Positions 4,279 to 49,690 of a stretch of 64,000 nt of DNA are shown piece after piece. Source of the stretch: a virus. Lineage: Duplodnaviria > Heunggongvirae > Uroviricota > Caudoviricetes. The stretch covers positions 311,799 to 375,798 of the IMG/VR virus record IMGVR_UViG_3300031994_000001. One strand, written 5' to 3'. Under the pieces are notes generated by a model. That model was given only the letters and a program-made list of their open reading frames with translations. It had not been told where the DNA came from and did not search any database. Position 1 is the stretch's first letter. Each line of letters opens with the position of its first letter. Made by a program: the position numbers and the translations under genes.

Positions 4279-4776
4279 ATGAAAATATATTCAATAGACG
4301 AATTTGTAAACGAGAAATTGGATATACAACCAATCTCGAAAAAGAGACTGCAAGACCTGCAAATAGAAAGCCTGCCTGGGTGGAGCGACCACAAACTCAA
4401 GCAAGAGGCTATGAAGTGGGCGGAAGAATCCGCGCAATGGCTTGTTGACAACAAGGAAAATGGCGGATGCTGCTTCTTCAAACTCGGCGCGTCAAAATGC
4501 AAGACGGGTGAAATGTATATCGTTATGGGTTGGAGCGGCGGCTTTGACGAAGACGACACGCAGAACCCCTATGCCGATGGCGAATACAGAATCTGTACCA
4601 AACTCGCGTACAATGAAAGTTCAATGCAAAGCGACTATGAGTTTGATTGGGAAATGCCATACGATGAGAACACGGGTGACGTTGACGACACCGACACGGA
4701 GTACAGCGAACCCAATGATGTCTTGTGGCAGATAGAGCATTGGCAGGAACTTTACAAAGAAAACGATGACGAATAG
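4279..4776 (+). CDS. acidic hypothetical protein with the shared leader (FVNE-KLDIQPISKKRL)
   Basis: ORF with leader motif, late promoter and downstream terminator. Confidence 0.8.
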   Translation: MKIYSIDEFVNEKLDIQPISKKRLQDLQIESLPGWSDHKLKQEAMKWAEESAQWLVDNKENGGCCFFKLGASKCKTGEMYIVMGWSGGFDEDDTQNPYADGEYRICTKLAYNESSMQSDYEFDWEMPYDENTGDVDDTDTEYSEPNDVLWQIEHWQELYKENDDE

Positions 4777-4780
4777 TCAG

Positions 4781-4807
4781 AGGCTCGCAGACGCGAGCCT
4801 TTTTTTT
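4781..4807 (+). terminator. Rho-independent terminator
   Basis: AGGCTCGC-agac-GCGAGCCT followed by a T-run. Confidence 0.85.
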
Positions 4808-4808
4808 G

Positions 4809-4880
4809 TGTTGATAAGATTGTTGATAACTTTTCTGAAAAAAATGATGCGCGTATAAAAACATTTTGTATTTTTGCGGC
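4809..4880 (+). promoter_or_regulatory. Bacteroidota-type promoter (TATTTTTG -7 box) with tandem TGTTGATAA boxes
   Basis: TGTTGATAA at 4809 and 4821; TATTTTTG at 4869-4876; same geometry at 6994-7062 and 43004-43059. Confidence 0.6.
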
Positions 4881-4943
4881 GTAATCTGTTTATAAGCAAA
4901 ATCGCTTATAAAACACATATATAAGTCATATAACTTATAAAGT

Positions 4944-5504
4944 ATGAAGATAAAGAATCTGAAATCAACAATCACCCTAATCAAGAAGCACTTGATTGAC
5001 TGCGGGTGCGAGTTCGACCACAGCAGCGACAAGTCGAACTCCGTATATCTGAAACTGCTGAAAAAGACAATCCGCATTTCAGACCACTTCGGCCCGCTTG
5101 CCTGCAAGGACATCAACATCGTTGTCTCCGTGAACGGCAAATACTCCGTTGTCATAAACGGAGGTCTGCTTATTTACGACAAAATCAGCGAACTGAAATC
5201 CTTTATGAAGAATTACTGCGAACTCCAAATCTGCAACAACACCGTTGATATGAACCTCGTAAGCGAGAAAATCGTGTTACAAAAGGAAAAACTTGCCAAA
5301 ATCAACAGCGACCTTGCCGATTCAAACAGCAAACTTATGCAGTTGCAAAGCAAGGTGAACAAGGCAAACATACAAATATCGCAAGTGTCACACCTCAAAT
5401 TCAGTGATGACAGAACCGTTGACGTGTCAACACTCACGAGCAAACAAAAAGCGAAACTGTTTCAAGTTGCAAACAGTTTCGCGAAGCAGTTGTCACAGAA
5501 TTAG
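4944..5504 (+). CDS. hypothetical protein (SNSVY...IRISDH motif, C-terminal coiled coil)
   Basis: 186-aa ORF after a host-type promoter. Confidence 0.7.
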   Translation: MKIKNLKSTITLIKKHLIDCGCEFDHSSDKSNSVYLKLLKKTIRISDHFGPLACKDINIVVSVNGKYSVVINGGLLIYDKISELKSFMKNYCELQICNNTVDMNLVSEKIVLQKEKLAKINSDLADSNSKLMQLQSKVNKANIQISQVSHLKFSDDRTVDVSTLTSKQKAKLFQVANSFAKQLSQN

Positions 5505-5869: not shown

Positions 5870-5945
5870 ATTGAATATTATGTTTATTACTATATAATAA
5901 AAAACACGAATGTTTGTTCGTGTTTTCGTATTTGATTAGTCCGAT

Positions 5946-6376: not shown

Positions 6377-6925
6377 TTAGTCTTTGTTGAAGTATATACC
6401 GTTGTACTTGGAATCAGAACCCTTGTTGATTCTCACATAGCCTTTCGGCTTCTTTGTAACCAAGAATGTGACGGAAGTGTCAACCATAACGTGAGCGGTG
6501 TTCATAAACAGTCTGTTCACGAGCATCTTCACATAGTTCTTTGAACGGTCAACGAGAGCAAACGGAATCTTGTAGTCCTTGCCTCTGAAAGCGATGTCAA
6601 GCATAACACTAACCCTTTCCTCATCGTTTCTGTTTCTCACAACGGACTTGCCGCATTTTTTGGAGCGCATCTTGATTCCATTGATTTCCCAATTCACATA
6701 GTCGCCGTCAACCTCGTATTTGTCGCACATAATGGACGACACCGTTCCGTTGCCGCTGTCGAACTTGGCAACGAAATCACCGATTTCGGGAACGCTTATC
6801 ATTTCAAGATAGCCAACCCTCGTTAGTTCATCGGAGGACTTGTGGCGTTTCACACGCTTCTTTTCGCCACCGTTCTCATAAACAAGTTTCTCGCAGATAA
6901 AATTATCGTATGTCTTTATTTCCAT
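6377..6925 (-). CDS. RimK-associated retropepsin-like ('putative ATP-dependent zinc') protease
   Basis: AKFDSGNG..S catalytic-type motif, EER..V.LDI, F.LVDRS....MLVNR.FM; late promoter at 6944-6951. Confidence 0.65.
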   Translation of the reverse strand: MEIKTYDNFICEKLVYENGGEKKRVKRHKSSDELTRVGYLEMISVPEIGDFVAKFDSGNGTVSSIMCDKYEVDGDYVNWEINGIKMRSKKCGKSVVRNRNDEERVSVMLDIAFRGKDYKIPFALVDRSKNYVKMLVNRLFMNTAHVMVDTSVTFLVTKKPKGYVRINKGSDSKYNGIYFNKD

Positions 6926-9843: not shown

Positions 9844-9869
9844 TATTTATATCAACAACCTTATAAATA
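9844..9869. promoter_or_regulatory. back-to-back late promoters
   Basis: TATTTATA at 9844-9851 and TATAAATA at 9862-9869 between divergent genes. Confidence 0.7.
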
Positions 9870-9898: not shown

Positions 9899-11794
9899 AT
9901 GAAAACTTTTCAAGAAACCATACAATCAAACGGGCTTGAATTTGTAAGAGACCTTATGAACGGCTACACGATGGTGTACGAGAAAATCAACGCATCAACC
10001 CTATCGTTCAAACGAATTGACGACACCCTCTATTTCTACAAGGGTCGCAACAACGAGGAAATCAACAGCATCAATTCTATGCTGTACTCCTACTTCCAAA
10101 ACGGAATAGACCACGTTAAGAGAACAAGCCTCATTTGGTACAAGGAACTCCCAGAGAATTGGCTGTTCAGAATGCAATATGTCATTCAGAACGACAACAA
10201 TATGATTAACTACAACAATATGCCGCAGAACAATCTGATTCTGTCCTGCATAGACACGGGCAACACGATTATCGAAGACCCCAATGTGCTGAAGAAATGG
10301 GCTGACCGATTGCAGATTGACTACACGCAACCCGTGTTCAACGGATTCCTTTCGGAGTTCCAAAAGGAGAGATTGGTCGAATACCTGCAAAACGGAGACC
10401 TCAACGGAATATCGTTCTCGCAGTATGTCATCAGCCTGCTCAACCCGAATCTCACGCACAGCGCGTTAAGCGATGAGTTTATGGGCGGCATTGACAGTTT
10501 CATATTCAAGTTCTACAAGCCAGGCGCGAAGAAATCAACAACACTTAAACTCATTGACCCGTATATGTCCGCACTCATCAAGCAAAACAAGCACGAGTTC
10601 GGAAAGATAGACGGCACTGAATCCGAGGTCATTCTTGCCAACTTCATAGCATACTTGCAAACGGTGAATCTCAACGACATAAAGGCTGACGGCGAAACCG
10701 AGGACGAAAGGTACATTGACGTTATCTGCAAACTCTTCAACAACTACATCAAGAAAGAGCAGGAACTTATCAAGGGTATGAAAGGCGGCGTGAACGAATC
10801 CTATTCGGTGAACCTTGACAAAATCAAGAACGAGGAAACCGTTGAACTTCTGCGCAGCAACCCAAGCCTAACCACCGTGTTCCAAATCATAACGGGTATG
10901 TTTATGAACAAAAAAAGCGAGAACAATCCGAACTCCCTAATCAGCGGCAGCGTTATGGACGCATTCAACAAAGAGGTGAGCGATATTTGGAATCACGTTG
11001 CGGACAAAACCACATCAGTTCAATCGTTCAAAGAACTTATGGGCGGTGACAAAACAGAGGAAACACCCGAAAAGGTGCTGACATTCTCCGAGTTTATGAC
11101 GAGCATCGGCAAGGCTGACGAATACTCTGATGACGACAACGGCGGCAAGGAAACCGAACACAAGGAATCCAAACCAAAAGAGACCGAACATCACGAGGAA
11201 GCCCACACCGAACCCGACAAATCCGAAAATACCGACAACGGTGACGGAGGTAAATCCGAACCAAGCAAAACGGAATCTGACGGCGGTGAAAAATCAGAAC
11301 CCGAACAAAAAACAGAACCCGAACACACGGAAAAGACAGAACCCGAAAAGGAAGAAAAAACCGAAGACGGAGAAAAGAAAGACGATGGTGAATCCGAGAG
11401 CAACAAAGAAAACAATGACGGAGAAACAAAGGACAACAAAGACAACAAAGAGGAATCTGACAAAGGAGAGTCCGATAAAGGAGAATCCGACAAAAAAGAA
11501 AACGAACACAAGGGTTGGGGTGACGAAGGAGACGGAAAAAAATCAGAAAAGGATTCCGACAAAGGCGAAGGAGAATCCGACAAAGGAGAATCCGATAAAT
11601 CCGACAAATCCGATGAAGGAAAGTCCAATGACGAGCCAAAGGAAGAAAAAGAACCAAAGACCGAAAAGGACGATACATCAAAAAAGGACAATACATCCAA
11701 AAAGGACGATACATCCGAAAAGAAAGAGAAACCCGAAAAGAATGATAAACCAAGCAAAGACGACAAATCAGATGACGGAGGAATAACATTGTAA
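9899..11794 (+). CDS. hypothetical protein: ligase/nucleotidyltransferase-like N-domain plus ~220-aa D/E/K/S low-complexity tail
   Basis: VYEKINAS resembles a degenerate EKxDG motif I; ESDKG and KKDDTS repeats in the tail. Confidence 0.6.
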   Translation: MKTFQETIQSNGLEFVRDLMNGYTMVYEKINASTLSFKRIDDTLYFYKGRNNEEINSINSMLYSYFQNGIDHVKRTSLIWYKELPENWLFRMQYVIQNDNNMINYNNMPQNNLILSCIDTGNTIIEDPNVLKKWADRLQIDYTQPVFNGFLSEFQKERLVEYLQNGDLNGISFSQYVISLLNPNLTHSALSDEFMGGIDSFIFKFYKPGAKKSTTLKLIDPYMSALIKQNKHEFGKIDGTESEVILANFIAYLQTVNLNDIKADGETEDERYIDVICKLFNNYIKKEQELIKGMKGGVNESYSVNLDKIKNEETVELLRSNPSLTTVFQIITGMFMNKKSENNPNSLISGSVMDAFNKEVSDIWNHVADKTTSVQSFKELMGGDKTEETPEKVLTFSEFMTSIGKADEYSDDDNGGKETEHKESKPKETEHHEEAHTEPDKSENTDNGDGGKSEPSKTESDGGEKSEPEQKTEPEHTEKTEPEKEEKTEDGEKKDDGESESNKENNDGETKDNKDNKEESDKGESDKGESDKKENEHKGWGDEGDGKKSEKDSDKGEGESDKGESDKSDKSDEGKSNDEPKEEKEPKTEKDDTSKKDNTSKKDDTSEKKEKPEKNDKPSKDDKSDDGGITL

Positions 11795-12676: not shown

Positions 12677-12704
12677 AATATAAATATATAAACAAATAAC
12701 AATT

Positions 12705-13331
12705 ATGAAAATATTACTCACCGAACAATATTCGGAACTTATAACCGAAATGGCGGCTATCAAAAAAGTCGCGCAGGAAATTGACGACTTCTTTGAAATG
12801 CTTAAAGCACACAAAAACACATTCGCCTACGTATATACGGCTAACACTATGGACGGCAAACTCAAAAAGAAATTCGTGAACGCCGAGGGATTGACTGTTG
12901 AAAACCCTATGCTTGGCAAACTGTTCAAGGTCACTACATACAAGTTCAACTTCGGTCGCACATACAGAGAGGCTGTCAACAGAAAGAACCCCCAATGGCA
13001 GGTTCAGAACAGACGCGAGTGGAATGCCAAACTGCAAGGGTTCAGAATGACGGAGTTCAACGAGAAAGGTGACTTGTTCTTCACTATTGCCGACTTCACA
13101 TCAAAAACAAGGTATTTTATGCTTGACGACAACAGCATTCCGTATGAAGTGACAATGAACGATATTGACGGGTATTTGAAACCATCGTCAAAAACAACAA
13201 AAGTGAGCGGGTCTGGCGTTAATTTCCGCAAATTAAATGTGAATAAAATATACCGTTTCAACGCGGGTGGTAAAACTTGGAACAACAAGATTTTCCTCTA
13301 TCCGATTCTTGACCCAATTTTACGGAAATAA
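12705..13331 (+). CDS. hypothetical late protein
   Basis: TATAAATA at 12679-12686; N-terminal ...ELITE-MA. Confidence 0.75.
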   Translation: MKILLTEQYSELITEMAAIKKVAQEIDDFFEMLKAHKNTFAYVYTANTMDGKLKKKFVNAEGLTVENPMLGKLFKVTTYKFNFGRTYREAVNRKNPQWQVQNRREWNAKLQGFRMTEFNEKGDLFFTIADFTSKTRYFMLDDNSIPYEVTMNDIDGYLKPSSKTTKVSGSGVNFRKLNVNKIYRFNAGGKTWNNKIFLYPILDPILRK

Positions 13332-14093: not shown

Positions 14094-15101
14094 ATGGAAA
14101 TACTCAAATCAGAACAATACATAAACGAGAAACTGAACATCAAGCCCGTCACGAAAGATAGGATTGATAGCATATATGCTGAAATGTATAAAGACCTTGC
14201 TAAAAAATACAACCTTGTTTGGAACAAAAGTACAAAAAGGTTTGACTGTGACGGTGACGTGGAAATTGATGCAGACGATATTGTTGACGGAAAATTACCT
14301 TTGCCATTCGGCGTAATAAAAGGCAACTTCTACTGTTCTGGACGCACTGACAAAAAAGTATTCGATGACCCACTTGCATACACGGGCAAAGAACTTACAA
14401 CACTCGAAAACGCGCCAACAGAAGTTGGAAAAACATTTGATTGTTCATATAATAAACTGACAACACTTGAAGGCGCACCAAAGAAAGTTGGTATGGATTT
14501 TTATTGCCCATATAATTTACTAACATCTCTTAAAGGTTCTTCAGAATATGTCGGACACGATTTTAGTTGCTATGGGAATAAACTGACAACACTTGAAGGC
14601 GCACCAAAGAAAGTAGAATACAGTTTTTATTGTAGTAATAACAAACTAACATCGCTAAAAGGCGCACCTCAAAGATTAAAAGTTGATTTTGATTGCAGTC
14701 ACAACAATCTGACAACACTCGAAGGCGCACCGTCAAAAATAGGATGTATGGAAGATTGCACATTTGATTGCAGTTATAACCAACTAACATCACTTGAACA
14801 CGCACCTTGGGGCGGTAATGGTGGAATAAGATATTTTATTTGTGACAACAACAAATTAACAACACTCGAAGGAGCGTGTAATTACATAGAACGTGATTTC
14901 AGTTGCAAAAACAATGAACTCAAATCCCTTGAAGGCGCACCACAAACAGTTGGAAGAAATTTTGATTGTTCAAATAACAACCTAAAAACACTTGACATAC
15001 ATCCCGAAATTGTTGAAGGCTCATTCACTTGTAAAAACAACAAAGATTTAGTGTTGCCGAAAAGAAAACCGAGATGGATAAAAGACAAATTTATAAAATA
15101 A
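14094..15101 (+). CDS. LRR-like repeat protein (21-aa GAPxxVGxxFxCSxNxLTxLE repeats) with shared leader
   Basis: MEILKSEQYINE-KLNIKPVTKDRI; about 10 repeats. Confidence 0.88.
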   Translation: MEILKSEQYINEKLNIKPVTKDRIDSIYAEMYKDLAKKYNLVWNKSTKRFDCDGDVEIDADDIVDGKLPLPFGVIKGNFYCSGRTDKKVFDDPLAYTGKELTTLENAPTEVGKTFDCSYNKLTTLEGAPKKVGMDFYCPYNLLTSLKGSSEYVGHDFSCYGNKLTTLEGAPKKVEYSFYCSNNKLTSLKGAPQRLKVDFDCSHNNLTTLEGAPSKIGCMEDCTFDCSYNQLTSLEHAPWGGNGGIRYFICDNNKLTTLEGACNYIERDFSCKNNELKSLEGAPQTVGRNFDCSNNNLKTLDIHPEIVEGSFTCKNNKDLVLPKRKPRWIKDKFIK

Positions 15102-15518: not shown

Positions 15519-15546
15519 AACAGCCGTCAGATTTGACGGCTGTTTT
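15519..15546. terminator. bidirectional terminator
   Basis: AACAGCCGTCA-gatt-TGACGGCTGTT between convergent genes. Confidence 0.85.
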
Positions 15547-15550
15547 ATTA

Positions 15551-16006
15551 TTACCAATGTTGGTAGATTATATCAAATCCACCGTCCTTTCTCTGCGTCA
15601 CGCCGATAGCCCGATTCATAATGTCGGCTGAACCGTCACTTCGATTATACCAAGCGTCAAGATACATTTCGGGATTGCCGTCATCATTGTTCTCGAACTT
15701 GCCTTTCTTGAACCCGCTAACTATGTCATTCCACAAATTTCTGATATCGCTTTCGCTTTTAGGCAAGTTGTATATTTCATTGTTCCACGGAAAACGCAAG
15801 TCCAAATTTTCCATTTTCCTGCGCTCACCCCTGCTGTTACCGCCATCAATGTCATCTTCCAAATCAGCAAGCAATTCTTCAAGGTTTTTCTTGAACGTCA
15901 TATATGGTATGTCGTCTTTCAGACTTTCCAACCTATCCTTGCCTATCGGTTGAATACCAAGCCTCTCGCAAACACCGAACTCCGAAAATTTCTTTATACG
16001 AACCAT
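15551..16006 (-). CDS. hypothetical protein with shared leader
   Basis: MVRIKKFSEFGVCE-RLGIQPIGKDRL; TATAAATA at 16023-16030 (minus). Confidence 0.8.
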   Translation of the reverse strand: MVRIKKFSEFGVCERLGIQPIGKDRLESLKDDIPYMTFKKNLEELLADLEDDIDGGNSRGERRKMENLDLRFPWNNEIYNLPKSESDIRNLWNDIVSGFKKGKFENNDDGNPEMYLDAWYNRSDGSADIMNRAIGVTQRKDGGFDIIYQHW

Positions 16007-16137
16007 AGTGAATTATTTTGAGTATTTATAAAGCAAGAGCCGCCAAAAACTGACGGCTCGGTAACTTTTTCAACAACTTGGTTGATAAGATTAAGTATTC
16101 ACAACGGTCGGTTTAATCTCCATCGCTTATAAATGAC

Positions 16138-16878
16138 TTATATATAAACATTCTGACTTACCACATCGGGATTCATAGACGGGTTGGGCGGCTCACTCTC
16201 CATACCATTAACCATATGCGTATGCTTGTTGAAATACTTTAAGAATGTGTCGCCTTTAAGCAGACCCTCAACAGCGTCCTGCCCAAGTTTAACACAAGGG
16301 GCGTTTATCTTTATCTCCTTATCGGAGTTTATCGTTATGTCGCCGTTCTTCAACGAAACGCTGTCACCGTTTGAGTTATACATAGTGATTTCACCCTCTG
16401 GTGTAAGGTTGAATGTGGCTGAACCGTATGCGTTCTTGAAGTCTATGACGAATCCTTTTTCCTCCGTGAAAAAAACCTTTATGTACTCGCCCTTTCTGAA
16501 ATTGTCGGCATCATTTGCAAGGTTGGTGTCATATATGAGAACGTGAGCATTGGGATAGTAGTCCGTGCCTATCTCGGCAGAAACCTCATCCGACACATAC
16601 ATATTGCCGCCCCATTCGGGAGTGTTGATAGTGCCGCCGACCTTTACGATAGAACCTATCTTCGGAACGGAGAAACTGCCCGCGCCGCTCGAACTTCCGC
16701 TCTGCGGCAGGCAGGTAGGCATAGCCCACGGAAGCATCTCCGCAGGAATCACATAAGAACCGTCAGCGTTCTTTTGGTCGGTAACGCCGAATATTCTGAC
16801 GCGCACCCTTCCCTTGAATGTGGGGTCGTAATTGTCTTCTACTCTTCCTATCATATTGTTTGGCTTCTCATTATCCAA
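16138..16878 (-). CDS. baseplate hub/spike protein (gp5 OB-fold, no lysozyme domain)
   Basis: GRVEDNYDP..KGRVRVRIFG, LPWAMP, VPKIGS.V; beta-rich middle; C-terminal HTH metal-tip motif. Confidence 0.8.
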   Translation of the reverse strand: MDNEKPNNMIGRVEDNYDPTFKGRVRVRIFGVTDQKNADGSYVIPAEMLPWAMPTCLPQSGSSSGAGSFSVPKIGSIVKVGGTINTPEWGGNMYVSDEVSAEIGTDYYPNAHVLIYDTNLANDADNFRKGEYIKVFFTEEKGFVIDFKNAYGSATFNLTPEGEITMYNSNGDSVSLKNGDITINSDKEIKINAPCVKLGQDAVEGLLKGDTFLKYFNKHTHMVNGMESEPPNPSMNPDVVSQNVYI

Positions 16879-22148: not shown

Positions 22149-22166
22149 ATCAATATGTTTTAGTTG

Positions 22167-22622: not shown

Positions 22623-22653
22623 AATTTCCGTTATTTGTTATATTTATATCGGA

Positions 22654-23127
22654 TTAGAACGGGAGTTTGAAGAAAATCTGTATTATTTTCTCGAATGTCA
22701 TAAACTTCACGTCTGTCATAAGACGCTTCACATACCAAAATATGACAGACTTGTAATCATCGTCATTCCCATACATTTTGAAAGCCGCCCAAAGAGAAGT
22801 GTACAATTCGGTCTCGGTCATATTTTTGTTGACGCGAACGGCGTGTTTATTCAGTTGGATGCGAAGTGGAAGCGAATGCCATTTCTTGAACAACGCCAAC
22901 ACTTCGTCAGATGTTTTCTTCATTTTCTCGCTGTTCCAAGCGATGAAACTGTTAGTCCACATATTCCTTCCGAGTTGGTCAAGGTCAACCAACACATCAA
23001 TCGGGTAGTTGTAACCAAACAACTTGTTTTTCATATCGGAAAGCCGTTCAACAGTCCGTTTCAACCTATCCGCAGTAACGGGCTGTATGTTCAGTTTTTT
23101 CTTCTGTTCATTGGGATTTGCCTGCAT
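22654..23127 (-). CDS. hypothetical protein with partial leader, probable paralog of 22167..22622
   Basis: KLNIQPVTADRL; shares a LWxAF..Y..D..Y..VI block with its neighbour. Confidence 0.75.
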   Translation of the reverse strand: MQANPNEQKKKLNIQPVTADRLKRTVERLSDMKNKLFGYNYPIDVLVDLDQLGRNMWTNSFIAWNSEKMKKTSDEVLALFKKWHSLPLRIQLNKHAVRVNKNMTETELYTSLWAAFKMYGNDDDYKSVIFWYVKRLMTDVKFMTFEKIIQIFFKLPF

Positions 23128-23139
23128 ACCAACGGAATA

Positions 23140-33681: not shown

Positions 33682-35118
33682 CTAATTGTCGAAATATCCC
33701 TCCACGTCTTCGCCTTTCCAAACATACAGCGTCTCTTGGTAGAATATCTTGACGCTTGCATATCCGTCACTGCCTATTTTCGCACGCTTTGTCTCGTCTT
33801 CGTAAACAACATCGGAATCGGGCTGCACCGAATATGTCGAAGAGTTTTTCGACCCCTTTGTCAACTTTTCGCCAATGCGCACAAGCCAAAGCCAACTTTT
33901 TGTCCTTTTGGTAATCTCATAGAAATAAACCCTGCCGAGATAAGTGCAATACACAATATCACCAACACGATAGATTTTACGGGAGACATCAGTCTTGGCA
34001 AGCCGTTCTTTCGTAACGGGCTGTATTGTCAGTTTCTCGGAAACATACCTATTGCCTCTGCTCCAAATAAGATTGGCATTACTTTTTGAAAAAATTGAAA
34101 CAAATTCTTTTATAAGAAAATTGTTTTCATTATCCCTGCATTTTAGATTAGGAATCCGATAAACATTCATTATGTCACATATACCAACACTCTTTATATC
34201 TTTCAGTCTATTTGCATTAGATTGAAAAACTTTTCTTGGAACATTCCAATTCAAATTTGAATCATAATCTTCCAAAAATGTGTATGTTTCCCAAGCAACC
34301 GAATACACAGTATTTGCAAAACCATCGCCAAAACCTATGAATACACCACTTTCGTTTTTATCGCCATCATAATATGTTTTAGTGTATTTTGCAAGCAAAG
34401 ATGTATAATCAGAAAATGCGACATATAAAAATGTTCTATTGGCATCCCCTCTGAATGTCACAACGTCACCCGTTTGGAAATTATTACGCATATCATCCGA
34501 AGAAACTATGTTGCGGTTTTTAAGAGAATTTTTCGTAACGGGCTGTATTGTCAGTTTCTCGGAAACGAAGTTGACTTTCCTGCTCCAAACAACAACCGCC
34601 CTTTTCTTTTGAAATTCAAAAGTATCCTCGTCAAAAAGCAAAGTGCCGTCATCGTTTCCGCTTCTGTTACATTTGAAATCCAACATTCTGTAAACGCGGA
34701 GAATATTACCTACATATCCGCCGCTCCAATCCAATTTGGAATTATAGTCCTGCAAAAACGTATAGTTGTTCCAATCGAAAGAAGTCTTTCCGTTTTCGTC
34801 AATAAGGAAAACCACAAAGACACCCATCTTCTGTGTGTCTTTTCTATCAAAATTCATACCCGTATGCCAATCCAAATAATCATAATCCGATGGAGCAATA
34901 TACATAAGTGTCTGCAATTCGGTGTATTCACCGCTGCGCTCATCAATTACCGAGCCGAATGTGACAACATCGCCCGTTTGGAAATTATCCTTCATTTCAT
35001 CTGATGAATTATAATGGACTATGCCCTTTTTCACCATCCTCTCCTTTGTCACGGGCTGTATGGATAATTTTTCCAAGACATTATTGGTAAACTCTGCAAA
35101 CTTAAACACTTTTGCCAT
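33682..35118 (-). CDS. three-module protein, each module starting with E-KL(S/T)IQPVTK (putative polyprotein)
   Basis: VLE-KLSIQPVTKERM, FVSE-KLTIQPVTKNSL, YVSE-KLTIQPVTKERL; modules 1 and 2 share NFQTGDVVTF; TATAAATA at 35136-35143. Confidence 0.85.
   Translation of the reverse strand: MAKVFKFAEFTNNVLEKLSIQPVTKERMVKKGIVHYNSSDEMKDNFQTGDVVTFGSVIDERSGEYTELQTLMYIAPSDYDYLDWHTGMNFDRKDTQKMGVFVVFLIDENGKTSFDWNNYTFLQDYNSKLDWSGGYVGNILRVYRMLDFKCNRSGNDDGTLLFDEDTFEFQKKRAVVVWSRKVNFVSEKLTIQPVTKNSLKNRNIVSSDDMRNNFQTGDVVTFRGDANRTFLYVAFSDYTSLLAKYTKTYYDGDKNESGVFIGFGDGFANTVYSVAWETYTFLEDYDSNLNWNVPRKVFQSNANRLKDIKSVGICDIMNVYRIPNLKCRDNENNFLIKEFVSIFSKSNANLIWSRGNRYVSEKLTIQPVTKERLAKTDVSRKIYRVGDIVYCTYLGRVYFYEITKRTKSWLWLVRIGEKLTKGSKNSSTYSVQPDSDVVYEDETKRAKIGSDGYASVKIFYQETLYVWKGEDVEGYFDN
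34009..34044. repeat. 36-nt direct repeat, copy 1 (module junction)
   Basis: tttcgtaacgggctgtattgtcagtttctcggaaac, identical to 34531-34566. Confidence 0.9.
34531..34566. repeat. 36-nt direct repeat, copy 2 (module junction)
   Basis: identical to 34009-34044. Confidence 0.9.
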
Positions 35119-35138
35119 AGGTCGGTTTATTTCTATAT

Positions 35139-35636
35139 TTATACACGCTCAAACAGCGGAACAAGCAAACTCGCGTCAACATTATTGAAAAAATCAATGT
35201 CAAACGGCTGACTTGGAAGTTTCTCGTATCGGTATATGCCGTCAACAAAAAGCGCACCGCCAGTTGATTGCATACGGTCGTCTCTGAAAATATCCATAGA
35301 CGTATAGCCCGAACCAATATCACCGCCACCCTTGTATTTGCAACTAACAAACACACCTTCCATAAAACTGTTTTCTGTGATATGACCTATTCTAACAATA
35401 TCATTGTACTTGTACCTCATTATGTCATCGTGGGAAATGTAAACGAACAGATATTCCATTTTGCGCGAATTGCTCGTTTTCGACATAGAAAATATGTCAC
35501 CCGTCCGAACCATAGATTTCCAACCTTCCTTATCCTCTATCTTTCGGAATGCCACCTCCCTATAAAGCCTATCGGAAGTAACAGGCTGTATGTTCAGTTT
35601 CTCTGATATGTATTGTTCGGATTTGAGTATTTCCAT
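35139..35636 (-). CDS. hypothetical protein with shared leader, related to modules 1/2 of 33682..35118
   Basis: MEILKSEQYISE-KLNIQPVTSDRL; TGD....YI...D....GVFV....YR pattern. Confidence 0.8.
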   Translation of the reverse strand: MEILKSEQYISEKLNIQPVTSDRLYREVAFRKIEDKEGWKSMVRTGDIFSMSKTSNSRKMEYLFVYISHDDIMRYKYNDIVRIGHITENSFMEGVFVSCKYKGGGDIGSGYTSMDIFRDDRMQSTGGALFVDGIYRYEKLPSQPFDIDFFNNVDASLLVPLFERV

Positions 35637-38037: not shown

Positions 38038-38994
38038 TTATCTGTCTTTGTTCTGCTGCGGTTCGTTATAGCCCGCCGTCTTTATCGTATAATCCAAGTC
38101 TTTGCCTCTGTTGGATTCCATATATGTCTTCGGGAACTCCCGCTCGGTTATCACATTTTTGTCAACCTCGCCGCCCTTTATTCTATCAGCGAGTTCGGGT
38201 ATGTCACGCTCGTCATAATGGTCGTCTCCAAGGTGGAATTTGGTGATAAGACCGCCTGGATATACACCAACATTACCGTATTCATCTGAACGGAACATCA
38301 TAACAGAGCCGTCCTTACCATTAATCATATCGTTTATCTCGTCAAGCAGTATGCCGTTCTCGAACACGGGATAGAAACTCTTTACCTCTATGCTGAACGA
38401 CACCTTGTACTCCTTCTGTTGGTCAATGCCGAACTCAATGGGTCTGTCCTGCGAATAGTCATTCGGCAAAGTGTACGCCGACTGAACCTGCATCATACCC
38501 AAGTCAACGAAAAACGTGTTCACAGCATAGAGTTTGCTCAATATGCTTTCTGTCACTTTCAGCATTTCGATTTGTGACGAACATACCATATTGCAGGTGA
38601 ACGACATATTGATTGGCAGGAAGCAGCACCTCATATAGAAAGTCTTGAGAATGCCGTCAACCTCGTGTACGAATTTAGCCTGCGTGAACTTGTTGACTTG
38701 GCTTCCCGAATCAATGGCTACGTTTTCAAGGTTGATTACACCCCTCGGAACTTTCTCGTAGTCACCAATAGCCTTGCCGTTGTTTATGGCATCATATTGG
38801 AACTCGTCTTTCAAGAAACGCTCGCCACCAGTGACGGAAAAGAAAAACGGGATGTCAATCTTTTCCATAACCTCGTTTGTCGGGTGCTGATAGACATATA
38901 TCCTTTTGTTGAGTTCAGCCAACAAAGCGACAATAATGTAGCGTATCACACTATTGTCGTAATTCATTGTCTGATTGTAAACATTCATTGCCAT
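38038..38994 (-). CDS. tail sheath stabiliser/completion protein (T4 gp15-like)
   Basis: IRYIIVALL, IPF, PRG, P.NMSF....S...MLKVTESIL, F.IEVK.FYP. Confidence 0.55.
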   Translation of the reverse strand: MAMNVYNQTMNYDNSVIRYIIVALLAELNKRIYVYQHPTNEVMEKIDIPFFFSVTGGERFLKDEFQYDAINNGKAIGDYEKVPRGVINLENVAIDSGSQVNKFTQAKFVHEVDGILKTFYMRCCFLPINMSFTCNMVCSSQIEMLKVTESILSKLYAVNTFFVDLGMMQVQSAYTLPNDYSQDRPIEFGIDQQKEYKVSFSIEVKSFYPVFENGILLDEINDMINGKDGSVMMFRSDEYGNVGVYPGGLITKFHLGDDHYDERDIPELADRIKGGEVDKNVITEREFPKTYMESNRGKDLDYTIKTAGYNEPQQNKDR

Positions 38995-40128: not shown

Positions 40129-40536
40129 CTAAATCGCTTCGGCACGTTTCTTCTCTATGATAGCCATAAGTTCCTCTTTTGTGCTGAAATATTCATCTTC
40201 ATAGTGGAACTCAATCGGGTTGTAGTCCATTTCGATTCTTTCGGACTCTTCCTCGGTTATGTCACCGTTATCAACAAGGCTTTTGATGTAAGTGTCGAAA
40301 ATAGACCAATAGTATTGACGCGCTATTTTCCTCATATCGTCAATTCCGATTTCGCTCATTGCGAATTTAAGGTCATCCTCGCCATAGTCCAAGTCTGGGC
40401 AAAGTTTATCGAATTTGTCCAACTCACCCATTCCCGTACACAATTGGAAGAATTCAATGTATGAATCATCCCCGAATCCTTCATTGATTCTACGGGTAGG
40501 CTGTGCCATTTCGTCAACTCTTTTAATATGTGTCAT
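40129..40536 (-). CDS. acidic hypothetical protein
   Basis: MTHIKRVDEMAQPTRRINE-G. Confidence 0.7.
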   Translation of the reverse strand: MTHIKRVDEMAQPTRRINEGFGDDSYIEFFQLCTGMGELDKFDKLCPDLDYGEDDLKFAMSEIGIDDMRKIARQYYWSIFDTYIKSLVDNGDITEEESERIEMDYNPIEFHYEDEYFSTKEELMAIIEKKRAEAI

Positions 40537-44008: not shown

Positions 44009-46861
44009 TTAAATCATTGAGTTTGGAATGGATTTGTAGATTCCCTCCATATCAATCTCTGGGTGGTTCTTTTGAAAGTTCTTCCAAATTTCAAGATACT
44101 TCTTACTGTTCGGGTCGTCCTCTTTGTAGTTGATACCCGTGAGGTCACAATATTTGTAAACCCTTGCGATGAAATCACTTGTTGTGTTTCCGCCTTTCTT
44201 GTCGAAATTGATTTCCAAGAATCTGACAAGTTTCTCCAATTCTTCGGCAGGAATTGGTTTCTTGACACTATATCTCTTCATAATGTCGCGTTTCAAGTGG
44301 TTGGTCATAACGGAAGATTTCATTTTGTCGTCAACTTTCATAGTCGGGTCAGCCATAATGTCCTCGTATGTGTACTTGAACGAACCGCCGCTGAAGTTAT
44401 CCATATAATCCTCAACATATTCCTCTGCCGTCTTGTCGGGGAGGAACTTCTTTACGATACGCAGAAATTCCTTTTCACCAAGTTCGGTATAGGACTTGAA
44501 TCCACGAAGCCTGCAAACGCGGTTAAGTTCCTCAATACAGAACGACCAAGAACGCGGGCTGATTTGTCTTGTCTTGTTTTGTGTGGTTGATTCAGTAGGG
44601 TCAATATTGTGCCATCTTGAATTTTTATTATCAGCACCTCTTGCTTGGATATGTTCGATTGTGAAGTCGTCAAATCCGCCTTTTTCTTTCGCCCATTTAG
44701 CCCATTCGTTAAAATCTGGAACGAAATTTACTGAAACGAAACGCTGTTTCAAAGCATCGCTCAACAACTGCCAATTCTGATTCACTTGAATATCGTCAGT
44801 AGGTCTGTTTGAACAAGCCATACAATACCACTTGCTACCAAGTCTGTAACCCGAAGTGGTTTTGCGGTTCATCATAATCTGCGCGATACCGAACAATGTA
44901 TCGGGGTCTGCACGCAGGAACTCGTCAAACATCAAAATACCGCCGCCACCGTGAAACTCGCTGTCCATTTCGATTCCGTCTTTGTCATAAACGACATCAA
45001 CAGCACCGTTTGCTGTGGCATTACGAGCCTTGTCAATTTCACGGTCGCCAGTTGGTTGCCACATAGGAAGCCAACTCTTCGGAGCGTCAGTCGCGTGCGC
45101 CGAAATGTATTTTTCAAAATCAGCGTTAGTCATATTACGACCTTTCACCATTTCCTTTATGACGGGGTTGTTTTTCACGTTTTCGATGTCGGCATCCGTT
45201 ATTTTGACTGGCATAGGCATAAACAAGTCGCCCGCTTGGAGTGTTGAACAGTCAATTACTATGATTGACATCATATCCTTGCTCGTTCCGCCGCTTTCCG
45301 CTATGCGTTTGTTTGCCGCTTCAATCAAAGTGGTTGGAATTGTTGTCTTACCGATACCTGGCGCACCCCACACCAACATAGGCTTACCCGATGGACGACC
45401 ATCCATAATGATTTCGTTGATGTTGTCGTTCAAGTCAGCCTCCAACTCACTTGTGGAAACATCAACAGCGTCAATGTTCATATAGGTTTGATTGCCCTCC
45501 TTGTCGAAACTCCTCAAACCGACACGGCGTTCATTCACTTCTTTAAGGGATTCGCTGACACCCGCAGCCTTGGAAACATAGTCCAAGAATTTGAGATAAT
45601 TGTCGTATTCCCTACTTCCCTTTTCGATTTTTTCGTAATAACCGCTCTTTTCGGGATAGTTGACTGGCTTGCCGATTTCGGCATACACACCCTTAATGTT
45701 GTTTTTGTGGATGAATTCAACAATGTTCTGCGGCAAGTTAGCACCGAACATATCAAATGTCTTGCCGACAACGAATGTGAATCCGTCTTTGAGTTTTATA
45801 CCAACGCTCTTGAAAGCCTCTTTGATTTTGCCAAACGCTTTCTTGGCGAAGTCACCTATAACACCCTCGTTCACCCCGTAGTTTTCCTTGATAAACTCGG
45901 CTGTGTCCATAATGTATCTTTTGCTTTCGTCAGTATCCATAATTCCCTTATTTTTGTATGATTTCAAATTTTTCACTTTGCGTTTAACGTCCTCGGCGTT
46001 TCCGACCATCGCACTCATTTGCTTTCTTGAAATTTCGGCATCGTCAACACTCATCTGACCGATAACGGGCATATAACCGAGCATCGGGTTGATTGAAGCA
46101 CCCCAACCGTCAATCACATCCTGCTTGTCAAAATCAGAACCGATAAACATATTCTTGATATTCTCCGCGCTTGCAAGTTCCCAACCACGGATTGAATCGT
46201 TGTTGAAAGTTGATTTGTAGAACATTCCCTCGAAACTTGTTGCGTTCGACACATCCCAACCGCTCAAATCAACATTCGGCAAATCCTTGAATGCGAACAC
46301 AGCGCAGAAATTCTTAACGTCTTTCACATTGAAAATAGAGTAGGGGAGTTCGACATCCTGCGTTGTCATACCCTCCAAGTCACCTTTAAGCAACATATCG
46401 TAAACAAGGTCGGAAGCGTAGTTAATGTCACGCTTGTCGCCTTGGATATACGCATTGTCGCCACGGTTTCTCATTGCAATCTCCCAATGTGAAAGCCAAT
46501 CAGCCTGCTCGTCAGAAAGGGTTTTACCCGCAGCCGCGTTCTCGGCACGGTTCTTCCGTCTCTCATATTCGTCCATAGACTTAACGCCGTCCATATCATC
46601 GGGAATGCTGTCCTCAAGTGAATCGCCGCCCACAACGGTGTCTTTCACGTCATCGAAGAAACCCTCGTTGACCACCATTTTCGTATTCCTGCTTGCAAGC
46701 AGTTCGTTCACAGATTCGGAAATCTGCTGTGCGTTTTCAGCAAAGAACTGTTCGTAAAGTTTACGCTTTTCGGAAATAGGCAGGCTCTTGTCAACCTTGT
46801 TCCAAAAGTTTTCCCTCGCGTACTTTGAAACAATACCTATATTATAATCAAATGCGTTCAT
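44009..46861 (-). CDS. MoxR/dynein-related AAA+ ATPase with N-terminal BspA/DUF285 repeats
   Basis: LSGWDVSNATSFEGMF repeats; VWGAPGIGKT, ILMFDEFLRA, SNRP.D, AL.QRF, SPRSW. Confidence 0.85.
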   Translation of the reverse strand: MNAFDYNIGIVSKYARENFWNKVDKSLPISEKRKLYEQFFAENAQQISESVNELLASRNTKMVVNEGFFDDVKDTVVGGDSLEDSIPDDMDGVKSMDEYERRKNRAENAAAGKTLSDEQADWLSHWEIAMRNRGDNAYIQGDKRDINYASDLVYDMLLKGDLEGMTTQDVELPYSIFNVKDVKNFCAVFAFKDLPNVDLSGWDVSNATSFEGMFYKSTFNNDSIRGWELASAENIKNMFIGSDFDKQDVIDGWGASINPMLGYMPVIGQMSVDDAEISRKQMSAMVGNAEDVKRKVKNLKSYKNKGIMDTDESKRYIMDTAEFIKENYGVNEGVIGDFAKKAFGKIKEAFKSVGIKLKDGFTFVVGKTFDMFGANLPQNIVEFIHKNNIKGVYAEIGKPVNYPEKSGYYEKIEKGSREYDNYLKFLDYVSKAAGVSESLKEVNERRVGLRSFDKEGNQTYMNIDAVDVSTSELEADLNDNINEIIMDGRPSGKPMLVWGAPGIGKTTIPTTLIEAANKRIAESGGTSKDMMSIIVIDCSTLQAGDLFMPMPVKITDADIENVKNNPVIKEMVKGRNMTNADFEKYISAHATDAPKSWLPMWQPTGDREIDKARNATANGAVDVVYDKDGIEMDSEFHGGGGILMFDEFLRADPDTLFGIAQIMMNRKTTSGYRLGSKWYCMACSNRPTDDIQVNQNWQLLSDALKQRFVSVNFVPDFNEWAKWAKEKGGFDDFTIEHIQARGADNKNSRWHNIDPTESTTQNKTRQISPRSWSFCIEELNRVCRLRGFKSYTELGEKEFLRIVKKFLPDKTAEEYVEDYMDNFSGGSFKYTYEDIMADPTMKVDDKMKSSVMTNHLKRDIMKRYSVKKPIPAEELEKLVRFLEINFDKKGGNTTSDFIARVYKYCDLTGINYKEDDPNSKKYLEIWKNFQKNHPEIDMEGIYKSIPNSMI

Positions 46862-46882
46862 ATATTTTGCTTATGTTTTTTC

Positions 46883-48883
46883 TTATTCTTCGGGTATATT
46901 GATTTGTGAAATCAAGTCGTCTCTCCAATCAAGACCGTTCAAGAAACTCTCTTTCAGAGAACCGTTCACGAAAGCACGCCAAGTCAGATACTGACCGCGA
47001 CCATTTGCAAACTCTTCTTCAACAGCCTCAATAACCTCATCAACGTGTTCGGGTGGAACAGCCCAACTGTTGTCATTGTTAGCCTTGACCTCATTCAGTT
47101 TAGCCTTGACCTTTGTCCAAATCACAAGAACGGGAGGTGCGATTCTGTAAAACTTGCATCTTCCTCTGATTGCGCCCCAACTGTCACCCAACTGACTTGA
47201 AAGTTTCTTTTCGGAAAGGTTGGTGATAATAATGAACCTACTCATAATGCTCATTTCATCGGGAATCATACGCTCAACGGTCTTGACTTTATCTTCCTCA
47301 TCGTCAGATACAGTAGCACCTTTCTTGCCCTTGCTTACCTTTTTCAGCATTTCTTGTGACGGACATTCCTTCAGATACCTTTTCTTGTAGTTCACAATGC
47401 CGCCTTCCTTGCAACTTTCCATACTGTAAAAGTTACCTCTGATGACATCGCCCATATCCGAAACGGTAGGACACTTCACTATCGGGAAGTCGCCTTTCGG
47501 TTCGAGAGCCTTTTTCCAAAATCCGATTTGGAAATCGCTGTCAAACAACTTCGGGGTGTCGTCAAACACAAGCACCTTGCCGTTGTTGTTGTATATGAAG
47601 TTGTAAAGTTCCTTTGCGTTACAAGTCGTGTTGTCACGCTCGGCATAGTCCTTACCCTTCACGAGTTTCATTTCTTTCTTGATTTCATTCCAAGTCTCTG
47701 ACTTACCGATACCGCCGACACCCGAAATAAAAATGGCGGGCGCACCCGTGTCAAGGGTTTCAAGTTTTTTAACCCTTGTTCTCTTACAGAACTCAACAAG
47801 GAACTGTGTTCTCACTTTCAAATCGTCCATCTGCTTGAAATACAAGTCAACAAGTCTCTTGAACTCGCTGAAATTGTTTCCGTACATAAGATTCACGAGG
47901 CTTATGTCAATGCCACGGTACTCCGTACCGTATTCACTTGTCACACCGCTTTCAACACTGACAGTCTCGTTTGTGAGAACATTGGCGTTGATGCCGAAAA
48001 TAGGCATTGTGCATATTGCATAGACAACAGCACAATATGTATCGGGGTTGCTGCTTCTTTTGATGGGAACGCCGCAGGAAAGAATCTCACGGTATTTTCT
48101 TCCGTCAGCGTCTCCAACGCAAAGTGATTCGGCAACGTCAAGCGGTCTGAAGTCAATGGTCTTGAAATATTCAGCCAACTTACCAATACCTTCGAGTGTG
48201 ATTTTGTCACCGAGGTCGCCAGGTCTTGAAAACTTCCTGCCGCTTCCAAGTTCGCCGTTAAGCCAATCTATGATTTTCAAAGTTTTTGGATTCTTCGCGG
48301 TGTTATTCCAAACTTTCAAAATATCGTCTCTGCTAAAAGCAGCCTCGTTAATCATAGGTTCGGAATACTCAACATCCATACCCTCGTACAAGCCGTTCTT
48401 GTAACCTTCGGGATGGTTGATGATGTCGAACAAAAGGTCAAGCATACGAACCAATCCCATATTGGTAGCCTTGACTGTGTAATTGGCGTTTTGTGAATCC
48501 TGCTTCAAATCATAGTTGGTGTAATAACGAAGCACGGCAATGTTTTCGTTTCCAACGGGCGTAACTGTGACAGCCTTTCCGTCACCGTGTCCGCTCATAA
48601 TAAGAACTGTTGACACGCCGTCAATGAGTTTGAAGAAAGTGTTGTAATACGCTTTCCAACCGCAATTCTTGTTCAAAAGGCTTATAACAAGTTCAGCCAT
48701 CTTCTTCATTTTCGGATTGTCCGAAACAACAAGATTCGGATTGGCTGCAATCGGATTTGCATTGAGTTCGTCAGCAATCTTAACGGTGTCTATTTCAGAA
48801 CCGTTTGCCTCAAGAATCAGATTCTCGCTCTCAACAACAGCGTGTTTGCCTAAACGGTTTATTGATTCAGATAATTTTTTCAT
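46883..48883 (-). CDS. AAA+/P-loop ATPase with long N-terminal extension
   Basis: ISGVGGIGKS, VLVFDD, IIITN, AIRGRC; TATAAATA at 48908-48915. Confidence 0.8.
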   Translation of the reverse strand: MKKLSESINRLGKHAVVESENLILEANGSEIDTVKIADELNANPIAANPNLVVSDNPKMKKMAELVISLLNKNCGWKAYYNTFFKLIDGVSTVLIMSGHGDGKAVTVTPVGNENIAVLRYYTNYDLKQDSQNANYTVKATNMGLVRMLDLLFDIINHPEGYKNGLYEGMDVEYSEPMINEAAFSRDDILKVWNNTAKNPKTLKIIDWLNGELGSGRKFSRPGDLGDKITLEGIGKLAEYFKTIDFRPLDVAESLCVGDADGRKYREILSCGVPIKRSSNPDTYCAVVYAICTMPIFGINANVLTNETVSVESGVTSEYGTEYRGIDISLVNLMYGNNFSEFKRLVDLYFKQMDDLKVRTQFLVEFCKRTRVKKLETLDTGAPAIFISGVGGIGKSETWNEIKKEMKLVKGKDYAERDNTTCNAKELYNFIYNNNGKVLVFDDTPKLFDSDFQIGFWKKALEPKGDFPIVKCPTVSDMGDVIRGNFYSMESCKEGGIVNYKKRYLKECPSQEMLKKVSKGKKGATVSDDEEDKVKTVERMIPDEMSIMSRFIIITNLSEKKLSSQLGDSWGAIRGRCKFYRIAPPVLVIWTKVKAKLNEVKANNDNSWAVPPEHVDEVIEAVEEEFANGRGQYLTWRAFVNGSLKESFLNGLDWRDDLISQINIPEE

Positions 48884-48910
48884 ATTATATTGTATTTTCA
48901 GCAAATATAT

Positions 48911-49690
48911 TTATATAGCGGTATGCTTTGTCCTTCGTGTGAAATCCATAATATCAACAGTCATAATCGGATTATCATCATAACTGTTCGAAATTATGCC
49001 CCAAGCACCCTTTTTATTGTTCCAACGAAGTCTTGCATAATAAATCTCCCTTCCGTGCAAATCCTCTGTCGGATATGTGAAATGACCGTCAGAACTTATT
49101 TTGGTGACATTCGCATATTTTTTATATTTGTCTGGAACATAGTCCTCCCTCACATAAATCCCAAGAACGCTCTCCTGCTCATATTTTTTCACACGTTTGG
49201 CAAGGTCTTCATATTCATATATGGTTGTTTTTAGCGTCTTGTTTGCATAAGTAAACCCGTTGTTAAATATATTGGTGATGATTGGCATAAGACAGCAAAA
49301 GCCGTCCATCGGTTTGACACCTATGACATAGCCGTTCAGTTCAAGAATACGCATAGCGTCATTCTGCTCGTCCCAAGTGATTGGAAGTTTCCAAACCTCG
49401 TTCTCAATGTCATTGTCGTAATCTATATAAAGTCCGCCGACAGACGACTTGAACACACTGACACCGCCGTCTGAATTTGAGCGGTCAAACTTGTTTTCGT
49501 CCCAATACCACATAATAGACGATACAAGGGCTGACGCGATAGCCTTCAGTTTCTCGGCTCTGCTTTTCGGCATTTCGGGAAACCCTTTCAAATCCGCCTC
49601 GGTTATTTTCAGATTTGACAACGCCGCACCCTCGCTTGCAAGCCTCGCCTTTGTAACGGGTGATATTTTCAGTTTACTTACGCTTTCCAT
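48911..49690 (-). CDS. hypothetical protein with degenerate shared leader
   Basis: MESVS-KLKISPVTKARL. Confidence 0.75.
   Translation of the reverse strand: MESVSKLKISPVTKARLASEGAALSNLKITEADLKGFPEMPKSRAEKLKAIASALVSSIMWYWDENKFDRSNSDGGVSVFKSSVGGLYIDYDNDIENEVWKLPITWDEQNDAMRILELNGYVIGVKPMDGFCCLMPIITNIFNNGFTYANKTLKTTIYEYEDLAKRVKKYEQESVLGIYVREDYVPDKYKKYANVTKISSDGHFTYPTEDLHGREIYYARLRWNNKKGAWGIISNSYDDNPIMTVDIMDFTRRTKHTAI

Follow-up and report, generated by a model that had tools for sequence, protein, structure and literature searches.

An N-terminal tag on many unrelated proteins of an uncultivated T4-like phage resembles a capsid-targeting leader followed by a conserved peptide predicted to survive cleavage

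Introduction

Why do phage genes with unlike products begin with the same short sequence? In a 64,000-nt stretch of an uncultivated tailed-phage genome (the window, bases 40864-104863 of a 144-kb IMG/VR virus record, G000, with a CheckV completeness of 48%), we examined a 25-residue N-terminal sequence, the tag, that is common to dozens of unrelated small proteins and has the consensus M-[K/E]-I-L-x-S-x-x-[Y/F]-[I/V]-x-E-K-L-x-I-[Q/K]-P-[V/I]-[T/S]-K-x-R-L. An earlier note on this DNA had proposed that the first half of the tag is a T4-type capsid-targeting propeptide cut after [I/V]-x-E, that the second half survives as a separate signal, and that any gene capturing the ~70-nt cassette would join a set of delivered proteins. 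In phage T4, the S77 prohead protease gp21 cleaves off the capsid-targeting sequence (CTS) MKTYQEFIAE (PMC8442874; Mullaney & Black 1996; PMC3012670, PMC9026906). The CTS is the classic route for loading proteins that are delivered with the phage DNA.

Distribution of the tag

The earlier note counted 14 motif copies in 12 open reading frames (ORFs) on both strands, and translation showed that every listed ORF begins with or contains the motif. A tag profile (A1) was run as the note had suggested and found 15 domains in the window, namely the 14 copies and a copy of the first half only at 6377-6925(-). Across the whole 144-kb record the profile found 23 domains, compared with none in 20 codon-shuffled records. 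The motif is real, and the shuffles rule out chance.

Tag-bearing ORFs make up 8.8% of the record. A degenerate DNA pattern scan of IMG/VR returned a sole contig, IMGVR_UViG_3300033463_006479 (G001; 192 kb, 70% complete), which shares a syntenic structural block with the record at 45-90% protein identity and carries 89 tag domains in 76 ORFs, amounting to 31.6% of its length. When 1.84 billion representative proteins were searched with the profile, the tag was found in only 190 clusters and started nearly always at residue 1. The profile had no match in the more distant jumbo phages LR756500, LR745206, Tenacibaculum phage PTm1 and Prevotella phage Lak-A2, and because it was unmatched in these four, the second half of the tag (K-L-x-I-[Q/K]-P-[V/I]-[T/S]-K-x-R-L, hereafter the 12-mer) appears to be clade-specific. 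A tblastn search of one carrier against 50,697 phage records gave no match, and a literature search with motif fragments returned nothing relevant.

The predicted cleavage junction

The halves of the tag meet at a Glu-Lys junction (E↓K, the arrow marking the predicted cut) whose flanking residues are nearly invariant. P1 is Glu in 173/173 tags, P3 is Ile, Val or Leu in ~90%, P1' is Lys in 172/174, and the propeptide is 12 +/- 1 residues long in 120 of 135 N-terminal copies. In N-terminal copies (n=176), M(P12), I(P10), L(P9) and Y/F(P4) each carry 3.2-3.6 bits, whereas in internal copies between the units of fused proteins (n=49) these positions carry <=0.9 bits while [V/I/L](P3), [N/S](P2), E(P1) and the entire 12-mer stay conserved. 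Mutagenesis of the T4 CTS assigned targeting to residues 4 and 7 and processing to residues 8 and 10 (PMC9026906), and the contrast between N-terminal and internal copies matches this split, providing comparative evidence for the same division of labor. A polyprotein that is first loaded and then processed would be expected to need one targeting element in total and a cut site wherever two units meet.

Polyproteins of this kind combine cargo types, for example three modules of an undescribed family ('TGDIV') followed by a leucine-rich repeat (LRR) unit. The window has a three-unit polyprotein, 33682-35118(-), in which the Lys codons of the junctions lie at 35070-35068, 34557-34555 and 34035-34033; V-S-E↓K-L and the 12-mer persist at its internal junctions, whereas M-x-I-L is missing there. 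Other genes start at the junction itself, with Met in place of the junction Lys (M-L-x-I-K-P-I-T-K); three such genes stand in tandem in G001, and another, g012, lies in the record outside the window (g011/g012, G000:7335-9434(+), L002). There, g011 ends EDFINEK-YNR-stop and g012 begins 3 bases later with M-LNIQPLTKQDL. The pair looks like a former polyprotein split exactly at the tag junction, with stop and start mimicking the cleavage products, which suggests that the E↓K boundary is functionally real and that the 12-mer does not depend on the leader but acts at a free N-terminus or close to one.

Prohead protease and late promoters

T4-like markers of the record include late promoters of the sequence TATAAATA as well as genes for a tail sheath, a gp15 homologue and an S77-type prohead protease. 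A gp23-family capsid gene (96.7 bits) is present in G001, where tagged genes lie immediately downstream of it, and the capsid protein reads Q-M-L-N-E↓S at the position corresponding to the T4 gp23 maturation site.

The protease of the record (PHROG 207, head maturation protease, E = 6.8e-34), of which an identical protein was also found on a 413-kb contig, is a three-part fusion of the S77 domain, 12 repeats (DUF7603 region) and a C-terminal helical domain. Behind the S77 domain, the tandem 14-residue repeats H-[S/N]-D-Y-L-A-E-[K/Q]-L-[Q/E]-x-N-F-x contain the same junction as the tag. Elsewhere among the 161 proteins of the record, the pattern [YF][ILVM]xE[KQR][LIM] occurs in untagged proteins only as six singletons, and when a repeat profile was compared with 411 other proteins of both contigs, in-register tag junctions made up 13 of the 20 best matches. 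The repeats are conserved across >6000 fused protease-scaffold proteins from metagenomes, their number varies between relatives, and AlphaFold2 (AF2) models them as long helices with low confidence. By analogy with T4 gp22 and gp21 (PMC9026906) and with the proteases of giant phages, which auto-process their own C-terminus (PMC5694885), we read the repeats as a scaffold that would be chopped at each Glu. We also read the tag centre, N-[D/E]-Y-[I/L]-x-E-K-L-N, as a likely copy of one scaffold unit, which would explain an affinity for the prohead core. When the full-length protease (A4) was co-folded with residues 1-45 of a tagged protein (A2), the score was 0.00 without controls, and the result was used neither for nor against binding.

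The sequence TATAAATA is the T4 late-promoter box. It occurs 46 times in the record versus ~12 expected from base composition (~4-fold enriched), and ~30 copies are correctly oriented 4-45 nt upstream of gene starts, including those of the sheath, the protease and five carriers. The four exact boxes listed in the earlier note precede the start codons at 4279, 16006, 22622 and 35118 by 16-18 nt. Its remark that most other carriers sit in runs behind a box can be extended, as all remaining carriers are in a co-directional run behind TATAAATA. The promoter motif points to late expression of the carriers together with the head genes.

With these elements in place, there is good in silico support for reading the first half as a capsid-targeting propeptide of the T4 type that is cut after [I/V]-x-E. 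The leader length, the [L/I/V]-x-Glu end, the S77 protease and the unrelated carriers all agree with a T4-type propeptide, as do the P1 and P3 residues, the TATAAATA promoters, the targeting/processing split and the protease repeats.

A separate resemblance to the T4 leader was seen in a 631-aa late protein at 9899-11794(+), which starts MKTFQETIQS and is identical to the T4 CTS at 6/10 positions; the final Glu is missing.

The 12-mer predicted to be retained

As the earlier note had stated, conservation is higher in the second half than in the first, and the 12-mer is the most conserved part of the tag. It is present on every internal unit of fused proteins and is kept where no cut is possible, that is, in the junction-start genes and in two copies with a degenerate first half: 22654-23127, where Lys replaces the Glu before K-L, and 48911-49690, where the leader is MESVS only. 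The same applies to two genes of G001 with leaders of 4-6 residues, and G001 21536-23666 is among those with Glu-less leaders. The idea of a separate retained signal fits the fused units, the junction-start genes and the decayed leaders alike. By this pattern, the 12-mer appears too conserved and too independent of cutting to be merely the primed side of a protease site.

The motif might alternatively have belonged to one fold shared by all carriers. In an AF2 model of carrier 35139-35636, residues 1-40 had predicted local distance difference test (pLDDT) values of 57-66 compared with ~90 for the cargo, and the tag was modeled with helices at residues 6-14 and 21-37 and with N-I-Q-P-V-T as a loop. 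Because the tag is low in pLDDT while the cargo domain is confident, the tag is predicted to be flexible and to lie outside the cargo fold.

Relatives place the two halves in order. Those with a protease 50-60% identical to that of the record have first-half-only leaders, for example MQYIKTYEEFLNE↓K, MKILKSNEF... and MRILKSENFIAE↓KL, and one of them has the proto-form KLNIKPV followed by unrelated residues. The 12-mer was seen in G000, G001 and L028 and not in L025-L027 or L029, for each of which ~22 kb was covered. Given the first-half-only leaders of the relatives, the 12-mer looks like a later addition in a lineage already using T4-type leaders. A closer relative (84% protease identity) has another leader class joined to a 12-mer-like sequence, MTHIRKIDE↓KFYIKPLTADKL.

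Like the leader of the tag, this second class, M-x-H-I-[K/R]-[R/K]-[I/V]-[N/D]-E, ends I-x-E. It occurs in the window at 40129-40536(-) and elsewhere at G000:31616-32149(-), G001 h016/h200, L025:457, L026:6418/16860, L027:2435/3278 and L028:3659-3970. Two of the genes have it fused to the 12-mer or to a sequence resembling it, and the class probably represents a further kind of propeptide or targeting signal in this phage group.

Cargo diversity and spread of the tag

The 112 cargo units of both contigs fell into 31 BLAST clusters, the largest being LRR relatives (27), DUF285/BspA-like proteins (26) and the ~125-residue TGDIV module (16), for which Foldseek found no match in the PDB at E <= 0.001. 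Pfam searches of 149 of the 190 database representatives gave DUF285 in 18, FISUMP in 9, LRR in 2 and single oddities, the rest being unmatched. Within the window the cargo calls of the earlier note held, with Pfam matches to LRR_4 in 14094-15101 and DUF285 in 33162-33656, BLAST similarity of 11801 and 35651 to the LRR protein, and no family for the others. Cargos have a median length of 174 aa, a median isoelectric point of 5.2 and no membrane-like segments.

The earlier proposal on how the tag reached so many genes was not supported. Capture of a ~70-nt cassette was rejected, as the tag DNA is unconserved: codons at invariant tag residues vary freely (for Pro, CCA 58, CCC 17, CCG 13 and CCT 12), which shows selection on the peptide and not on DNA or RNA. 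Variable tag positions moreover track the cargo family, not the genome: P10' is Asp in tags of the LRR cluster and Thr in those of the DUF285 cluster. Gene conversion between tags was also considered, and was rejected in view of the codon variation and the tag positions that follow the cargo family. The tag seems to have spread as genes duplicated and diverged while selection acted on its peptide sequence, with arrays that grew mainly by duplication.

Interpretation and alternatives

In the explanation we consider best, the tag is an address label with three elements, borne by proteins that would be loaded into the phage head. Residues 1-9, M-[KRE]-I-L-x-x-x-x-[Y/F], would provide T4-type capsid targeting, once per polypeptide, into the prohead scaffolding core, most likely by co-assembly with the protease-borne scaffold, one 14-residue repeat of which would be copied by the tag centre. 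The following [I/V/L]-[N/S]-E↓K-L would be the S77 protease cut site, which removes the 12-residue propeptide and separates fused units. The 12-mer would then stay at the new N-terminus of each mature unit as a second signal for one common partner. Most of the cargos are binding modules that are small, soluble and acidic (LRR, DUF285/BspA, FISUMP and numerous unknown folds), and the cargos would enter the host with the DNA like T4 internal proteins. This explanation starts from what was observed here, namely the anatomy of the tag and its conservation pattern, the protease with its repeats, and the late promoters. From these we infer packaging, cleavage and delivery as well as the role of the 12-mer, and we consider it probable that the tagged proteins are loaded into the head and cut as described. 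By the features testable here, the system reads as T4-type capsid targeting.

We lean towards the 12-mer being a handle that a common phage partner would recognise after cleavage, acting either in retention or positioning within the filled head or in threading through the portal and tail at ejection. That it is a true second signal of this kind is a tentative proposal. The main alternative is that it docks inside the capsid much as encapsulin loading peptides do, which would also explain the leaderless genes. A more specific version, possible but equally tentative, may be called 'load, then arm': the T4-like half would load the protein by mimicking a scaffold repeat, and the 12-mer would be a second address, active only once the protease or a junction start codon exposes a free N-terminus. 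The exposed handle would dock to a common partner such as the portal/tail channel, the DNA end or the capsid interior, so that ~100 different binding proteins could be retained and ejected in order. If true, this would be the first described ejection or sorting signal for phage-delivered proteins, and the binding target of the CTS would be the scaffold's own repeat.

Three other explanations were weighed. The whole 16-25-residue element could be a single signal, an extended protease recognition and cleavage site or a scaffold-docking site, with cargos still packaged and the 12-mer idle after the cut. K-L at P1'-P2' is indeed found in the protease's own repeats, the 12-mer always directly follows the junction, and the proto-form KLNIKPV suggests gradual extension of a site. 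However, the protease repeats share nothing past K-L-N, T4-type proteases need few primed-side determinants (PMC9026906), and the 12-mer is intact on the junction-start genes and on those with Glu-less leaders (22654-23127, 48911-49690 and G001 21536-23666), where cutting is impossible; we regard a single signal as unlikely. Slightly less likely still is external display, in which the tag anchors LRR, BspA-like and FISUMP modules outside the capsid or tail as decoration or adhesins and the E-K bond stays uncut. These cargo families are typical surface-binding repeats, a structural 950-aa protein of the window also has DUF285, and the Tenacibaculum phages, the most distant relatives by sheath similarity, are reported to bear head fibres. 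Relatives of that type nevertheless lack the tag, a flexible 12-residue peptide is short for a stable external anchor, and display would not predict a leader that matches T4 propeptides, which act inside the prohead, in its length, its residues and its site ending in Glu, internal junctions that retain exactly the processing residues, or a protease scaffold tail that repeats the same junction.

The tag might instead have no virion role and serve as a recognition peptide for a modifying enzyme, such as a RimK-like ATP-grasp ligase, or as a regulatory or degron peptide on late cytoplasmic proteins. An ATP-grasp gene does lie between the protease and two tagged genes, and Lys, Thr/Ser and Arg residues are conserved within the 12-mer. 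A specific link between this gene and the 12-mer was rejected because the gene is equally syntenic in relatives without the 12-mer, so that the two do not co-occur specifically. Within the 12-mer, moreover, the acidic position (P10') is unconserved, and the T4-like leader, the fixed propeptide length and the match to the protease repeats would be left unexplained. We regard this as the least probable of the three, and quite improbable.

Several points weigh against loading into the head. The phage is uncultivated and its tag system is known from sequence alone. LRR, DUF285/BspA and FISUMP are typical of bacterial surface or secreted proteins, making an external role conceivable, and the cargos are mostly acidic, unlike the basic T4 IPII and IPIII. 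To our knowledge, a set of at least 76 different packaged proteins far exceeds that of any characterised phage. No gp23-family capsid gene was found in the 144-kb record, which is itself incomplete. The similarity between tag and scaffold repeat spans only 8-9 residues and counts as one event, because all tags are homologous and have one origin. Finally, genes with the 12-mer but without the targeting half would go unpackaged under a strict T4 model, so that either the 12-mer also loads or those proteins act elsewhere.

Comparison with known systems

Like the T4 CTS, the tag is a short N-terminal leader on unrelated proteins, with an aromatic residue and then an [I/L/V]-x-Glu end, in a genome with an S77 protease and TATAAATA late promoters; the variable cargo set and the split between targeting and processing residues are also shared. 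It differs in the 12-residue conserved extension retained after the predicted cut, of which T4 has none, and in a leader of 12 residues rather than 10. Multi-unit polyproteins with a junction before each unit, 20 to >76 tagged genes per contig compared with 3-4 in T4, acidic binding-repeat cargos, and a protease fused to a repeat scaffold whose unit the tag seems to copy further set this system apart. The principle of T4-type capsid targeting is well established (PMC3012670); new here are the putatively retained 12-mer, the polyprotein logic, the match between tag and protease scaffold repeat, and the extreme scale.

The jumbo myoviruses phiKZ, 201phi2-1 and SPN3US package tens of megadaltons of protein (PMC5694885, PMC7411985, PMC10052503), and their homologous protease cuts after Glu and auto-processes its own C-terminus. 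Their motif is A/S/G-x-E, however, their propeptides mostly exceed 100 residues, and they lack a shared short tag, a retained conserved peptide and large paralogous cargo arrays. Encapsulin cargo-loading peptides are likewise short conserved peptides on diverse cargos that dock inside an HK97-fold shell, and may offer one model for the 12-mer, but they are usually C-terminal and not coupled to proteolysis. Fused protease-scaffold proteins are known from P2 (gpO) and lambda (C/Nu3), in which a protease domain is followed by a helical scaffold in one polypeptide that is degraded during head maturation. The protein described here differs in being S77-type and in having 12 regular 14-residue repeats, each with a putative cut site and matched by a peptide on the cargos.

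The contrast between N-terminal and internal copies amounts to a natural dissection, supporting by comparison that T4 rules hold in a distant T4-like jumbo phage. The lineage also gives a concrete idea of how such a tag could act, as one unit of the protease's own scaffold repeat, and it draws attention to an undescribed conserved peptide on every predicted mature cargo that is kept even after leader loss. If the cargos are truly delivered, up to a third of a contig's DNA would be devoted to injected binding proteins, and sequence alone would be enough to list them and to look among them for anti-defence functions. A further use for the halves of the tag could be the loading of proteins into T4-like capsids.

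Carrier genes and genomic context

The carriers and other features are listed in Table 1. The tail sheath has its nearest relatives, at 29-42% identity, in huge uncultured phages, in jumbo phages of Tenacibaculum and Flavobacterium and in Lak phages. The carrier with the short leader MESVS, 48911-49690, has a positional counterpart in G001 with a full tag.

Table 1. Coordinates of tag carriers and associated features. Positions refer to the window unless a record is named; arrows mark predicted cuts.
Feature	Location	Strand	Details
Tail sheath	749..4201	+	PHROG 34521, E = 1e-123; TATAAATA at 720
TATAAATA late-promoter box	4254..4261	+	17 nt upstream of 4279 start; just after terminator-like hairpin with T run
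Carrier, 165 aa	4279..4776	+	N-terminal tag MKIYSIDEFVNE↓KLDIQPISKKRL; cargo without known family
First-half-only ORF	6377..6925	-	MEIKTYDNFICE↓KLVYE, first half plus K-L; without 12-mer
TATAAATA heading run with carrier 11801	at 9862		in front of ORF 9899-11794(+)
Carrier, 291 aa	11801..12676	+	tag MEIMRSNELNE↓KLNIQPRSKSDI; cargo cluster C1 (LRR relatives); behind 9899-11794
First-half-only leader ORF	12705..13331	+	MKILLTEQYSELITE; TATAAATA at 12679; heads run with carriers 14094 and 15105
Carrier, 335 aa	14094..15101	+	tag MEILKSEQYINE↓KLNIKPVTKDRI; LRR_4 cargo (Pfam)
Carrier, 136 aa	15105..15515	+	tag MEIQKSDRYINE↓KIGIQPVTKDRL; cargo without family
Carrier, 151 aa	15551..16006	-	tag ...FSEFGVCE↓RLGIQPIGKDRL; TATAAATA at 16023-16030
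Carrier, 151 aa	22167..22622	-	tag MKVLSYRGFVSE↓KLNIQPVSKDRL; TATAAATA at 22641-22648
Carrier, 157 aa, paralogue of 22167	22654..23127	-	decayed first half MQANPNEQKK, Lys at P1; intact 12-mer KLNIQPVTADRL
Carrier, 164 aa	33162..33656	-	tag MTKILNSERFIFE↓KMGIQPISKEQL; DUF285 (BspA-like) cargo (Pfam)
Three-unit polyprotein, 478 aa	33682..35118	-	three copies; TATAAATA at 35136-35143
Carrier, 165 aa	35139..35636	-	tag MEILKSEQYISE↓KLNIQPVTSDRL; cargo TGDIV module (cluster C3)
Carrier, 234 aa	35651..36355	-	tag MKILKSEQYIGE↓KLNIQPVSKNRL; cargo cluster C1 (LRR relatives)
T4 gp15-like tail sheath stabiliser	38038..38994	-	upstream in same minus-strand run as carriers 36355-33162
Carrier, 259 aa	48911..49690	-	inside conserved structural block; short leader MESVS↓KLKISPVTKARL
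RimK-like ATP-grasp ligase gene	G000:13651-15057 (outside window)	-	adjoins protease, as in four relatives; behind TATAAATA box
S77 (T4 gp21-type) prohead protease, 647 aa	G000:19981-21924 (L003:1981-3924; outside window)	-	PF03420, 49.5 bits (cut-off 27)
ATP-grasp syntenic copies	L025:13742-15169, L026:12571-14007, L027:12068-13480, L029:12907-14322		
ADPrib_exo_Tox / TnpB/Cas12f-like ORFs of relatives	L027:14461-14961, L026:7398-9308, L029:6737-7948 and 15534-16760		

Two long ORFs on opposite strands, 4279-4776(+) and 4523-5155(-), overlap by 254 nt. The tag, the TATAAATA box and the terminator-like hairpin upstream all go with the plus-strand ORF, which casts doubt on the minus-strand ORF or on its start. 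A deaminase reading of 22167-22622 was discarded as spurious, since the APOBEC_C match was below the cut-off and neither an HxE nor a PCxxC motif was present.

Neighbouring genes of the window include a 950-aa structural protein at 44009-46861(-) with a DUF285 repeat and an ATPase-like region (PHROG 1297), a homologue of the A subunit of gyrase/topoisomerase IV at 51095-52444(-), and a fused dihydrofolate reductase-thymidylate synthase at 53592-55172(-). RimK extends a C-terminal Glu, and products of the prohead protease would end in Glu; a link of the ATP-grasp gene to head maturation is conceivable. In relatives, an ADP-ribosyltransferase-like ORF (ADPrib_exo_Tox) lies 2.4 kb from the protease and is reminiscent of T4 Alt, and TnpB/Cas12f-like genes are found near the head module.

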